From Escherichia coli (GTDB taxonomy: Bacteria > Pseudomonadota > Gammaproteobacteria > Enterobacterales > Enterobacteriaceae): DNA of 64,000 nucleotides. Every line of letters begins with the position of its first letter. Within the stretch, counting starts at the first letter, position 1. A program made the position numbers and the translations under genes. Below are positions 1,597 to 6,049 of the stretch, in pieces. Below the pieces are notes generated by a model that was not told where the DNA came from, made no database searches, and saw nothing but the letters and a program-made list of their open reading frames with translations. The stretch is taken from NCBI RefSeq assembly GCF_003991155.1, contig NZ_CP031293.1. One strand, 5' to 3'.

Positions 1597-1770
1597 TCAC
1601 CCGGAGAAGGTAAATCCCTCAAGGGGCAGCAACTCTGCCAGTCGCTCCTCCGGCCACTCCGGCAGACGTGTCAGGACGTCTGTCAGCCAGGCATGTGGCT
1701 CCAGACCGTTGCGTTTCGCGGTTTCCAGCAAGCTCATTATTTGCGCAGCGCGTTCTCCCGCCATACGACA
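1597..1770 (-). pseudogene. IS66-family transposase (TnpC) C-terminal remnant
   Basis: Minus-strand translation ...AGERAAQIMSLLETAKRNGLEPHAWLTDVLTRLPEWPEERLAELLPLEGFTFSG* matches the TnpC C-terminus (compare the intact copy at 13952..15523); no upstream portion present. Confidence 0.6.
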
Positions 1771-1779
1771 GCCGTCAGA

Positions 1780-3642
1780 GCAGTGCGTCAGCGGGCGGCA
1801 GTTTTACCTGGGGTGCTGGCAGAGGTGGTTATGGCAGCGCCAGCCGCGATAATATCCACAGCAACTATGATTCCGTTAATGAGCAGAGCGGTATTTTCGC
1901 AGGCCGGGGTTATTTTGATATCACTGTGGGGAATCACACTCAGCTCGATGGTGCGGTGATTGCTTCGACAGCACCTGCCGACAGGAACTCGCTGGACACC
2001 GGTACTCTGGGCTGGTCGGATATCCATAACCAGGCAGACTATAAAGCCAGCTATACCGGAATCAGTTTATCGGGTGGCTCAGGGATGTCAGCCAGCCAGA
2101 TGGTGGCCTCAAATGCAATAGCCGGTGCGGCGAACGCACTTACCGGTATGTCCGGCAGCAGTGGACATGCTGAAGGTACCACGTCATCCGCCATCAGCGG
2201 CGGAAATCTCATTATCCGTGATAAGGAGAGTCAGAAGCAGGATATTGCCGGGCTCAGCCGGGACCCGGAAAACGCCAACGGCAGCATTGCACCGATATTT
2301 GACAAGGAGAAAGAACAGAAGCGTCTGCAGGAAGCGCAGGTTATCAGCCAGATTAGCGGTCAGATGAGTAATATCGTAATGACGTATGGCGAAACTGAAG
2401 CGATGAAAGCAGCCTGGAAAGAGCATCCTGGCATGAGCGATGCACAGTTGCGGGAGACTCCGGAATACAGAGAGGTCATGAAAGGCTACGGTACGGGCAG
2501 TTCGCCGCAGATGGTGGTACAGGCCATCACGGGCGTGCTGGGCGGACTGAATGCAGGGAACCCGGGGCAGGTATTGGCGGGCGGTCTGAATCCGGCAGTG
2601 GCACAGCTTATAAAACAGTCCACCGGCGATAACCGGGAAGCAAACCTGATGGCTCACGCAGTCTGGGGTGCACTTGCCGCACAACTGGGCGGAAACAATG
2701 CGGCTTCCGGTGCTGCTGGGGCATTCAGTGGTGAACTTGCAGCCTGGTATATCATTGATAACTACTACGGTGGTCGTACCGATAACCTGAGTGAACAGGA
2801 ACGTCAGCAAATCAGCATGCTGGCCACCATTGCCTCTGGTATTGCGGGGGGACTTGCAGGCAACAGTACGGCGTCTGCCGGTACGGGTGCACAGGCAGGA
2901 ACTCGGCTGAAAACAATATGCTGAACGTGATAGCCACTGAAACAGCAGCTAATACGGCAGCAGCAATAGCTGGTGCTACAGGTAATGCCAGTAAGGATAC
3001 CGGGAATGATAATAGCTGGGATACCGGTGGTGTTACGCTGGCTACGGGAACAGTGTGCTGTACGTGATCCGAGTCGCGATGGCACCCGAGGACCGGGGCA
3101 TGTGCTGAATGGCGACAATACAGACGGAAACAAACAGCCGAATCTGGGCAAAGACGTAGCGAGCGCAACGGATAAGGATAAAGCTGAGCTTGGTGGTGCA
3201 GGTGCTGGAATACCGGGGGGGATGGGGACCGGATAATGAAGAAAAAGCCCGTCATCAGGAGGTTCAGCAACAACGATTTGATGAACTGAGTAAAATATAT
3301 GATAAAAGTCACCCGGCCGGAGAGTTAACGGTGGATGGGCAGACTATCAGGCAGAGTTCGGTAAGTAACCGTTATGGTACGACGAAAGTGTTTGAAAGCC
3401 AGACTTTGACGGATAAACAGATCCACAATTACGCACAGCAACTGGCAGGCGATACACCGCTGAAAGAGGTAAAATCGGGAATCTACACGTCTAAACTATC
3501 AGATGGTTCGGTAATAACACTTAGAAACATATCTACATCAGAAGGTCAGACAGGCGCTCGTTGGACTATAGATATTCGTAATAACCAAAAGCTTACTGAA
3601 CTGGGGAATAAATATTCACGTGTGGAGATTAAGTTCAAATGA
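1780..3642 (+). pseudogene. cdiA: Orphan cdiA-CT module 1: 5-prime-truncated CdiA fragment with C-terminal toxin domain, interrupted by at least two frameshifts
   Basis: ORF 1668..2924 encodes a Gly/Ala-rich CdiA pretoxin region; (A)ENN motif at 2906..2917 is in a different frame; toxin ORF 3190..3642 in a third frame; homopolymer G7 at 3214..3220; left end abuts the IS66 remnant. Confidence 0.7.
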
Positions 3643-3995
3643 TTACTGAGTTAAGTGAAAGAGAATACAAGGAGTTGACAGACGCTGCAGAGGGACAGAC
3701 TCTTGATGCTATTTTGTGTTATTCAGTTCCTGATATTCACCCTGCAGAGTTTAGTTTTGCAGATAGAAGAGAAATCTTTTTTTGGGCATTAACCCGTCTT
3801 CTGAAAGAAGGGCGTATCAAACTCGCCAAGCACGGTAAGTTTTTGGAAGGAAGTGTTGACGAGCAGGTTGAGCGTTTTCGACAGGCATTTCCGAAAACAG
3901 AAGAAGAGATGGAAGACGGTATCTGGTTTTTTGATGAGAGTTGTCCGGGGGGGGCTGTTTGGGTGCTTGAAGATGGCTCTCTCGAATGGACCTGA
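3639..3995 (+). CDS. cdiI: CdiI-type immunity protein for module 1 (118 aa, intact)
   Basis: Start overlaps the toxin stop (ATGA at 3639-3642); small acidic AT-rich ORF immediately 3-prime of a CdiA-CT domain. Confidence 0.65.
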
Positions 3996-5112
3996 TAACC
4001 CCTTCACAGCGCAGGATGCGGCGCAGCGAGCGTATAACAACGATATGGCGGCCTCAGTTTTTGGTACCGGAGGGAACGATACAGGCTACAACGGCAGCGG
4101 TACAGGGACTGGCCGGCGGTAATCTGAGTGCAGCCCTGGCAGGTGGTGCAGCACCGTATCTGGCCGAAGTGGTGAAAACCATGACCACAGACCCGGTTAC
4201 CGGTGAGGTGAATAAGGCTGCAAATGTGGCTGCTCATGCCGTGGTGAATGCCGCACTGGCTGTGGCACAGGGAAATAACGCTCTTGCCGGTGCTGTAGGT
4301 GCAGCCACCGGCGAGGTGGTGGGAATGATAGCCACACAGATGTACGGTAAGCCGGTGAGTGAACTGAGCGAGACAGAGAAGCAGACGGTCTCGACACTGG
4401 CAACGGTTGCTGCTGGCCTGGCCGGTGGTCTGGTGGGCGACTCGGGGCTTCAGCGGTAGCCGGCGCACAGTCAGGTAAGACGACTGTTGAGAATAATTTA
4501 CTTGGCGGTAGTGAAGATGCTCAGGCTGCGTGGATACGCCAGCATGGTATCGACATGGCAACATGTGCAGAAAACCCTTCTGGTGCCGCCTGCCAGAAAG
4601 CAATGAATGAGAGGGATGCTGTAGGGCTGGCTCTGGCAACAGGTACAGTGGCACTACTCCCCGGTAGTGCTCAGGCTGTGTGGGGACTGGGAGCAAGTGC
4701 GAATGCTGGTATCAGTTATCTGGCTGATGGTACTGTAGATCCGACAAACGCAGCCATTGCAGGCTGGGTGAATGTGTTCAGCATGGGTAATGGCCTGGCG
4801 GGGACTGTGGGCTGGAATGCGGCAGGTGGTGCGCTGGGTAACTGGATTGACAACAAAGATCCTCTGTCTGGTGCAATTTCAAATGGTATCGGTTCTGCTG
4901 CCGGGTATGGTATCGGTAAAGGTATTACTTGGGGGACAGATAATATTACGAATGCTGTAGGAAAATGGGTGACAAATGGCTGGGATCCTAAGTACGATCC
5001 AACATGGATAAAATATGCTGAAGTAAATCGTAACGATATCATTCGAGAAGGCATGAAACCGAGCAATGTTCTTGGAACTGCTGGAGATATTGGCGGTTCT
5101 ATAGGATCCTAG
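3986..5112 (+). pseudogene. cdiA: Orphan cdiA-CT module 2: CdiA pretoxin fragment, VENN motif, Gly-rich C-terminal toxin domain; frameshifted; no immunity ORF downstream
   Basis: ORF 3986..4459 (..[10 protein letters not shown]..) then frame change; GKTTVENNLLGG at 4474..4506 (VENN 4486..4497) in frame with ORF 4555..5112; nothing coding in 5113..5230. Confidence 0.7.
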
Positions 5113-5230
5113 CTAGGTGGAAAAGTAACTTAGTCTGCAAGGATCAGGAGTTACAGACGGCATTGGCTTTACGCTTACCGTTTTTTTACGCGCCAGAACA
5201 AGACTATGATAGCGTTGCCCTTATAGACGA

Positions 5231-5644
5231 TCACATTATCGTCCACTCCGACTTTGCGCAACTACTGTAGAGTGGTGTACTCCGCGGCTTCTTTGAGGAT
5301 CTCAACTTCCATGTTTTTTTACCCAGCAAGGGCTGTAACTCTTTTATTTTTATAGCGGCAGCCAGTTCTGAGGCAGGAACAACATCCTCTCCGGTAGTAA
5401 CAGCAGCGAGACTTCCTTCCAGGTATTGTTTTTTCCACTTAAACAACAGACTGGGCTGAATACCATGCAAATGCGCCACATGGGACACCCTCATGCCAGG
5501 CTCCGTTGTCTGCTGAATAATGGCAATTTTTTCCTGAGGAGTTTTACGTTTACGAAGCTCCTGCCCCAGCAAAGTTCCAGTTATCTCAAAATTAGAACTA
5601 GTGTTAGACATATATCCAAGCCTATCTCTTATTTTAAGATACAT
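5231..5644 (-). mobile_element. IS transposase OrfA-like HTH protein (IS66/IS3-type accessory protein), solitary, with a frame change at an A7 run
   Basis: ..[78 protein letters not shown] then out of frame; a -1 shift at the A7 run (plus-strand T7 at 5315..5321) restores the conserved ending [16 protein letters not shown]; no cognate transposase ORF adjacent. Confidence 0.6.
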
Positions 5645-5671
5645 CCACTGTCTGGCGTTTCAAGGGGCGCT

Positions 5672-6049
5672 TCAAGTTTTTTCAGACAGTTGAACTAGTA
5701 TACCAATACATTCTTGTTCAGCATCAATGATACATGCTTGGTATGTCGGGAAAAAAACAGAGGTTTCTTTTACAATATATCCACAATCATAACATTGATA
5801 CCATTTCCAGCCTTTTTCCTGAATATAGGAAATATGTAGAAAAAGTGGCAAGACCGATTCGTCTGAGTATCCCTGTTTTTTAGCATTTTCAATGCATAAC
5901 AATTGCGAATTATATGCGTTATCTGATTGAGACAAAAGATATCCATTTTTCTCATGACAATACCATCTCCATTTATTGTCATCAGTCTTATAAAATTTCC
6001 ATATTAATCTCTGATTTCCAGATATCTTATAAATCATAATATACTCCAC
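5672..6049 (-). CDS. Hypothetical protein (125 aa), AT-rich; weak resemblance to DUF1508/YegP-type repeat
   Basis: Intact ORF; sequence KFYKTDDNKWRWYCHEKNGYLLSQSDNAYNSQLLCIENAKKQG loosely resembles the YegP-family motif; no function assignable. Confidence 0.4.
   Translation of the reverse strand: MEYIMIYKISGNQRLIWKFYKTDDNKWRWYCHEKNGYLLSQSDNAYNSQLLCIENAKKQGYSDESVLPLFLHISYIQEKGWKWYQCYDCGYIVKETSVFFPTYQACIIDAEQECIGILVQLSEKT

Follow-up and report, generated by a model that had tools for sequence, protein, structure and literature searches.

A decayed orphan cdiA-CT module in Escherichia coli, most probably the remnant of a CDI alpha-helical ionophore toxin that has lost its immunity gene

The window analysed here, a 64,000-nt stretch of the Escherichia coli contig NZ_CP031293.1 (assembly GCF_003991155.1), contains a VENN motif followed by a glycine-rich toxin region (CdiA-CT, hereafter CT) with no immunity gene beside it, raising the question of what kind of toxin the region encodes, whether it still forms a working module and whether its immunity gene was lost or never there. 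The locus is flanked by nanXY and pgtP, an interval occupied by cdiA-CT remnants in a short array that lacks both cdiB and the N-terminus of cdiA. It opens with an N-terminally truncated pre-toxin (PT-VENN) region (3986..4485; features are on the plus strand unless stated otherwise), which is annotated by PGAP and shows one indel in its alignment to STEC1587 cdiA; the corresponding Pfam match (PF04829) ends at VENN and is weak, with an independent E of 0.035 against a cut-off of 0.001. The VENN motif, identified by translation (4486..4497), marks the start of the CT, and the toxin region follows it directly, with pre-toxin sequence upstream, as the position of a CDI ionophore requires. From VENN the reading frame runs for 208 codons to a TAG at 5110-5112. 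RefSeq describes 3986-4502 as a frameshifted and incomplete 'VENN motif pre-toxin domain-containing protein', and 4555-5112, where an ATG start is kept, as a hypothetical protein of 185 aa (WP_001335046.1). We put at about 0.9 the probability that 4486-5129 is the decayed remnant of an orphan cdiA-CT module encoding a CDI alpha-helical ionophore, closest to group 6 of that family.

The family in question, described by Halvorsen et al. 2024 (PMC11630599), is large and very diverse, its members exploiting an inner-membrane protein through an N-terminal entry domain and depolarising the cell with a C-terminal bundle of five helices. Its only common sequence element is a GxxxGxxxG zipper in helix a4, and the cognate CdiI proteins are very hydrophobic and 72-100 residues long (PMC11630599). 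One member, CT-M15, has been shown to depolarise cells in a DtpA/DtpB-dependent manner (PMC11630599). We fixed the CT-M15 locus on the M15 chromosome by exact match of four published primers, covering the 3′ end of cdiA and the start of cdiI, and BLASTP aligned all 208 residues of the window CT with CT-M15 (APL26259.1) at 51% identity (E 3e-66).

A second, more distant connection leads to CT-EC93, whose sequence was rebuilt from the ePISA residue table in PMC11630599 and confirmed at 100% on plasmid pCP127. The family profile A2 scored 27.8 bits against CT-EC93 (E 9e-11 as a single comparison), the best of 1000 shuffles reaching 6.1 bits, and hhalign of the window CT family against CT-EC93 gave 85.5%; the clear signal needs this broadened profile, the narrow profile A1 barely detecting CT-EC93 (E 0.003-0.008 in a one-sequence search). 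The zipper is in place as well: G136-xxx-G140-xxx-G144 in helix a4 (4891..4917) aligns with G168/G172/G176 of EC93, and in the 54-sequence alignment A2 of diverse relatives G140 never varies, while conservation of G144 is at least 90%. Since both CT-M15 and CT-EC93 have been measured as depolarising toxins, this homology identifies the CT as an ionophore and assigns it to the CDI alpha-helical ionophores (E. coli CdiA-CT type 10), with group 6 as the nearest group. From its 51% identity to CT-M15, we infer that the intact form of this CT dissipates membrane potential.

Searching 1.84 billion representatives with the window family profile extended this neighbourhood to a group 5-type CT (P0241, E 5e-17) and to two group 4-type CTs (P0288 and P0290, E ~1e-11), with the ionophore domain nearly always at the extreme C-terminus of the matched protein. 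Groups 4, 5 and 6 were tied to these matches through the primer table of PMC11630599, which gives a CT start of VENN-LLGGSEW, an entry-domain end of ...ATGSVALL58 and a CT end of ...EAGK for M15 (group 6), and entry-domain ends of ...AFITNAVNN142 for E. ictaluri (group 4) and ...GTVMSGGIL60 for TMC005 (group 5). Membership of group 4 was considered and rejected, the published E. ictaluri entry domain being of the 142-residue type found in P0288 and P0290, unlike that of the window CT. In a large protein collection we found 232 relatives, the best 120 of which are VENN-type fragments of at most 362 aa from Enterobacterales. The reading that CTs of this family are found solely as orphan modules, which those 120 matches invite, was also discarded, because large cdiA ORFs of M15, STEC1587 and 2014C-4587 carry one at their 3′ end.

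The architecture of the CT was examined on an AF2 model of its intact parent, which is all-helical, with 2 + 5 main helices. An initial AF2 run on a shallow alignment (pLDDT 42.7) was discarded, and the model retained, being of moderate confidence (mean pLDDT 60, with 70-78 over CT residues 31-110 and less than 50 in a5), was used for secondary structure only. Its helices are in register with those of the published EC93 model. The putative entry domain (CT residues 5-58, 4498..4659) consists of two predicted helices, 10-25 and 34-57, flanking a C27...C36 pair; residues 1-60 are identical to CT-M15 at 35 of 60 positions with the Cys pair conserved, and the boundary at L58 is taken from the published chimera primer M15-L58, which matches the M15 genome exactly. 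An entry-domain identity to M15 of 54-58% suggests that the intact CT probably used DtpA/DtpB as its receptor, and DtpA/DtpB are reported to be used even by group 6 variants whose entry sequences are distinct (O91:H8; PMC11630599). The ionophore domain (residues 59-208, 4660..5109), delimited by profile A2 against CT-EC93 and by the AF2 helices, comprises predicted helices a1 (60-81), a2 (86-99), a3 (104-121) and a4 (126-163), and in the window it is truncated, retaining the first 10 residues of a5 and lacking the second half of that helix.

What the window has lost can be read from intact copies of the same toxin. The cdiA 3′ ends of STEC1587 and 2014C-4587 encode the same CT in intact form, 224 aa from VENN, and L002-L004 carry it with cdiI as an orphan module (P0002). 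Nucleotide identity of window positions 4387-5129 to the intact copies in STEC1587, 2014C-4587 and L002 is 97-98%; blastn aligns 4472-5129 with 6248-6905 of L002 at 98%, and 4387-5129 also matches 2401-3144 of L010. The intact CT continues for 16 codons beyond the window stop, ending ...GDIGGSIGS-ELGGKVTDKVSEELKK, and all intact relatives likewise run past that point (ELGGK...KK, with a similar S-E...K-rich tail). The tail that is absent from the window CT is the counterpart of helix a5, which is predicted to contact CdiI together with two other helices (PMC11630599). Further upstream of its intact CT, the 2014C-4587 cdi locus is itself broken.

Base-by-base comparison with STEC1587 as the reference reveals a series of lesions in the window copy. 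The frame is shifted ~40 nt before VENN by the loss of 1 nt at about 4443-4450, the sole indel relative to STEC1587. Five amino-acid substitutions separate the window CT from that of STEC1587, among them P196L (CCT to CTT, 5071..5073, from a difference at 5072), which alters a residue invariant in alignment A2. The premature stop E209* (GAG to TAG, 5110..5112, from differences at 5109-5110) falls on a residue at least 90% conserved. Past this stop, residual CT codons (L-G-G-K-V-T) can be followed over 5113..5129, where homology to intact copies ends; the break at 5129/5130 lies 31 nt short of the natural stop and leaves the copy without its last 10 codons and without any of cdiI. The copies in STEC1587, 2014C-4587 and L002-L004 have no frameshift, keep P196 and E209, and retain both the tail and an 85-aa cdiI. 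The original prediction had missed that the toxin itself is incomplete: the natural CT has 224 residues, not 208, and the window holds a truncated pseudogene. The circumstance that it had named as telling against it, a domain continuing in related strains into the IS-disrupted region, is what the intact copies display, with E209* followed by the loss of 10 codons.

The module in the window is thus dead, with no cdiB or cdiA N-terminus, a frameshift, P196L, an E209* that cuts a5, and a 3′ deletion that takes in cdiI; in place of a functional orphan cdiA-CT/cdiI module it offers a frameshifted, prematurely stopped and 3′-deleted toxin gene with no partner. It might nevertheless be asked whether the product of 4555-5112 retains a function, as a residual ionophore, as a dominant-negative or decoy protein interfering with related toxins that enter the cell, or as a recombination reservoir for a cdiA elsewhere. 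The ORF is intact from its ATG and annotated by PGAP as a protein, and 55 complete E. coli genomes (MS 200-1, NGF1, M-17 and NC101 among them) match window positions 4000-5700 at 99.9-100% identity, a conservation that is explained by clonal descent of B2-type strains such as NC101 and MS 200-1. A reservoir could draw on the about 500 nt of pre-toxin homology left upstream, and upstream pre-toxin homology of orphan modules could permit recombination; against this, a CT recombined into a live cdiA with no immunity gene would be suicidal or useless. Cytosolic toxicity of CDI ionophores needs a precisely processed N-terminus (PMC11630599), and the 185-aa ORF starts at CT residue 24 and so lacks entry-domain residues 1-23, which argues against residual activity, as do P196L and E209* at invariant or nearly invariant positions and the loss of half of a5. 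We therefore regard a surviving function as very unlikely, and WP_001335046.1 as a leftover reading frame and not as a protein that takes part in competition. We give long odds to two further conjectures, namely that toxin and immunity gene decay repeatedly after loss of delivery through selection against leaky self-intoxication by ionophores active from the cytosol, or that the 185-aa fragment acts as a dominant-negative decoy against related ionophores from outside and so confers immunity in the absence of cdiI.

The composition of the CT had been the starting point for its assignment to the membrane, and here the picture is mixed. The description of the CT as glycine-rich is borne out: its 208 residues contain 16.8% Gly, 14.9% Ala, 8.7% Asn and 4.3% Trp, and the core (residues 49-150) contains 21.6% Gly and 18.6% Ala, only 6 of its 102 residues being charged. 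Its description as hydrophobic was overstated, the CT having a GRAVY of -0.14 and a best 19-residue Kyte-Doolittle window of 1.27, below the usual transmembrane threshold of 1.6; the verified ionophore CT-EC93 is similar (GRAVY -0.10, best window 1.76). Nor does the supposed enrichment in GxxxG-type motifs stand out from composition-matched shuffles. The window CT contains 7 GxxxG motifs, against 5.6 +/- 2.0 in the shuffles (32% of which reach 7, so that the excess is not significant), and 34 small-xxx-small motifs against 28.4 +/- 3.4 (7% reach 34, a marginal difference). The density of GxxxG and small-residue motifs is a consequence of composition, and G136xxxG140xxxG144 is the sole conserved family feature among them.

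If that richness in Gly and Ala were incidental, the CT could be an enzymatic toxin (a nuclease, deaminase or NADase), as most E. coli CdiA-CTs are nucleases (Table 2, PMC11630599) and PGAP names the M15 and EC93 cdiA genes 'effector tRNA nuclease'; that name, however, is given to cdiA generically and is incorrect for EC93, the ionophore with which the family was founded. Searches of Pfam, NCBIfam and PDB sequences with the CT returned no nuclease, deaminase or other catalytic-domain match, and a Pfam-A scan of the CT recovered PT-VENN only, leaving the colicin pore and Ntox25 profiles unmatched. The PDB sequence search also produced chance matches to AmtB (E about 0.2). Foldseek found nothing in the PDB with E <3 for the CT model, and in AFDB it found VENN/CdiA relatives only, which are sequence relatives and do not constitute independent evidence of fold. 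Together with the direct homology of the CT to toxins measured as depolarising, these results make an enzymatic activity exceedingly unlikely. The original prediction of a membrane ionophore without obvious catalytic residues, and not a nuclease, is in this respect upheld by the homology to CT-M15 and, through the profile, to CT-EC93, and the nuclease or deaminase fold that would speak against it was sought in the PDB and did not appear (Foldseek E >3).

The fate of the immunity gene follows from the DNA downstream of the CT. In the intact copies, the CT stop codon is overlapped by 4 nt by an 85-aa ORF, WP_000877779.1 (sequence MKYSSRVVIGKFIICSSILLLCFIGMILAAIITKLTFVALAWFQSGIFEVLWSDIVYAAQLGGLGGGILGFCWVLLYLFRAKGFS), with a GRAVY of 1.34 and two strongly hydrophobic, two-TM-like stretches. 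By position, size and hydropathy, this ORF is a candidate CdiI; BLASTP of the STEC1587-type CdiI against CdiI-M15 yielded no significant similarity (E 0.75), as expected because the immunity proteins of the family are highly polymorphic. A small hydrophobic ORF directly downstream of the toxin is thus present in the 97-98% identical copies and absent from the window. There the CT breakpoint is abutted by a 53-nt fragment of the end of an IS66-family element (5126..5178, strand not assigned), 94% identical to positions 2501-2553 of L006, which adjoin the tnpA of an ISEc43-family element. This is followed on the minus strand by the 5′ portion of an IS3-family (IS2-like) element (5179..5665), identified through NCBIfam and PGAP, which matches IS3-family transposases in other genomes and contains a truncated tnpA ORF (5231-5644; NCBIfam IS2 repressor TnpA, E 1e-34, partial); RefSeq annotates 5277-5584 on the minus strand as a frameshifted and incomplete transposase. 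IS-derived DNA therefore starts at about 5126-5130, and not after 5230, where the original prediction had placed it, and the CT is followed by this IS scar in each of the 55 complete E. coli genomes that carry the allele of the window.

No immunity-like ORF was found in 5113-5230, in agreement with the original prediction, this segment containing only a 35-aa TTG ORF (5163-5270, plus strand) and a 28-aa ORF (5175-5261, minus strand), both non-hydrophobic and inside IS debris. The search for such an ORF elsewhere, also proposed there, was carried out with blastn and tblastn and detected no relative of the cognate cdiI across the 64-kb window. When a Nissle-type CT+cdiI query was compared with five sampled genomes that carry the window allele, its best match was confined to the CT part, which suggests that these five genomes have no second cdiI-bearing copy. 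Of the two fates that had been offered for the immunity gene, deleted or never present, the first stands, since near-identical copies carry cdiI and homology stops abruptly at the IS debris. The absence of cdiI from the window accordingly reflects a deletion and not a difference of kind, the last 10 toxin codons and cdiI having been deleted in an IS-associated rearrangement. That the module instead arose as a solitary toxin fragment, to which no immunity gene was ever tied, agrees with the lack of an immunity-like ORF downstream or in the window but is scarcely credible given that the 97-98% identical copies have cdiI overlapping the CT stop, that homology breaks off sharply at 5129, still within the CT, where it meets IS debris, and that the Nissle 1917-type copy keeps both genes, each with its own nonsense codon.

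On the reading of the locus as a decayed ionophore module, the ancestral CT would have been delivered by CdiB/CdiA into the periplasm of a neighbouring cell, as its family membership implies. There, the 58-residue two-helix entry domain would dock on an inner-membrane transporter, probably DtpA/DtpB, and the five-helix Gly/Ala-rich domain would insert into the membrane and dissipate its potential, unless the two-TM CdiI, of 85 aa, were to bind helices a1, a4 and a5 and block the toxin.

The toxin type is already known, having been published in 2024, and the window copy is an ordinary pseudogene, not a new system. Its significance is mostly one of annotation. The 'hypothetical protein' WP_001335046.1, present in NC101-like B2 E. 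coli, is what is left of a known CDI ionophore toxin, and at the nanXY-pgtP locus these strains lack both the active toxin and the matching immunity gene. The ionophore domain has no Pfam or NCBIfam model, so that remnants of this kind stay unlabelled, and the parent cdiA genes of M15 and EC93 are mislabelled in RefSeq as tRNA nucleases. The double decay in B2 strains adds a small data point on the erosion of orphan CDI modules.

Among known systems, the colicin pore domains (A, B, E1, Ia, K, N), Ntox25 and Tse4 likewise depolarise cells and are neutralised by small integral-membrane immunity proteins, and none of them has a sequence or profile match to the window CT. Colicin pore domains fold as globules of 10 helices, need no receptor for insertion and act as cation channels. 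For Ntox25 and Tse4 a beta-barrel fold is predicted (PMC11630599), unlike that of the window CT family, the model of which is all-alpha. CT-EC93 (AAZ57198.1), the founding CDI ionophore, is a group 1, AcrB-dependent toxin. It shares with the window CT a homologous ionophore domain from a1 to a4, with the zipper in register, and its S-x-x-S-E...K-rich C-terminal helix resembles that of the intact relatives; CdiI-EC93, with 79 aa and two hydrophobic segments, is similar to the 85-aa CdiI of the intact copies. In contrast to the window CT, EC93 has an unrelated entry domain of 87 residues and lacks the ~40-residue a4-a5 insert, and the aligned core is ~26% identical.

The closest characterized relative is CT-M15, with which the window CT family shares the VENN motif, an entry domain of ~58 residues with a Cys...Cys pair, a Gly/Ala-rich domain, a GYGxG zipper and a Lys-rich tail, and the intact parent, like M15, has a small hydrophobic immunity gene overlapping its stop codon. 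The entry domain of the window CT is ~54-58% identical to that of CT-M15, so the receptor may differ, and the a4-a5 linker and tail of its family represent a different variant. Unlike the M15 locus, the window copy is truncated, mutated and devoid of an immunity gene. A counterpart closer in sequence is found in B2-type strains, in which the copy of Nissle 1917, CFT073, ABU 83972 and ATCC 25922 (256 genomes in all) has a CT 97% identical to that of the window and is also decayed. This copy occupies another locus, where it forms the end of a frameshifted cdiA, and keeps both the tail and cdiI, although in Nissle 1917 the CT and cdiI are interrupted by separate W->* nonsense codons. Because the window and Nissle 1917 copies carry different lesions, the same toxin-immunity pair has decayed independently at least two times.

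The first module of the array (window 1668-3995), like the second, seems to have decayed. Its upstream ORF, for a CdiA fragment (1668-2924), ends ...GAQAGTRLKTIC*, the AENN motif of the module lies at 2906 in a different frame from that ORF, and the toxin region (CT) following AENN runs on in a third frame into an ORF at 3190-3642, after which comes a DUF596 immunity-like ORF (3639-3995).

Intact relatives indicate how such modules are joined. In the orphan-module locus L002 (7185-7690) and in E. coli M15 (L013, about 1140-1300), the stretch that encodes (A/V)ENN in the subsequent orphan CT directly follows, or overlaps, the stop codon of the immunity gene cdiI, so that successive modules meet exactly at the VENN-coding sequence and the pre-toxin region is reduced almost to nil. 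Several modules can occupy a single cdi locus: an E. coli-like metagenome scaffold (L008, 1-3908) carries three ionophore toxin/immunity pairs in succession, comprising the main CdiA CT followed by a 71-aa CdiI, an orphan of group 3 U124 type whose CdiI start (MRILWNYL) matches a published primer, and lastly an orphan of group 6 M15 type with a 77-aa CdiI (groups and primer from Halvorsen et al. 2024, PMC11630599).

In E. coli Nissle 1917 (L011, 4001-4936), a frameshifted cdiA ends with a 97% identical copy of the second-module CT together with its cdiI; here the CT and cdiI each bear a tryptophan-to-stop mutation, independent of each other. The same CT and cdiI copy is present in CFT073, ABU 83972 and ATCC 25922, and 256 complete genomes share this locus arrangement. 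Certain other relatives are predicted fusion proteins. In P0004 and P0014 (Tenebrionicola larvae and Mixta calida), VVENN and the ionophore CT come straight after a lipoprotein-like signal peptide (…LSGAVAC…), and in P0068 (Edwardsiella ictaluri) the next orphan CT is fused in frame to a two-TM CdiI-like N-terminus; these fusions could be artefacts of gene calling or real alternative contexts.

Window positions 5126-5665 constitute a nested IS scar, made up of a 53-nt IS66-family end fragment and the 5′ ~490 nt of an IS2-like element. Numerous other E. coli genomes carry a 172-nt segment of this scar (5179-5349), unannotated, beside ISEc23 (for instance, at 4001-4172 of locus L005). Next to the scar, on the minus strand (5672-6049), is a 125-aa ORF annotated as hypothetical (WP_000639469.1), with two similar halves that each contain W(K/R)W(Y); it returned no significant match in NCBIfam, and we take it to resemble YegP/DUF1508.

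Neither Pfam nor NCBIfam holds a model for the ionophore domain of the EC93 (plasmid pCP127, L007) and M15 CTs. RefSeq labels both cdiA genes 'contact-dependent inhibition effector tRNA nuclease', contrary to the ionophore CTs, verified by experiment, that they carry.
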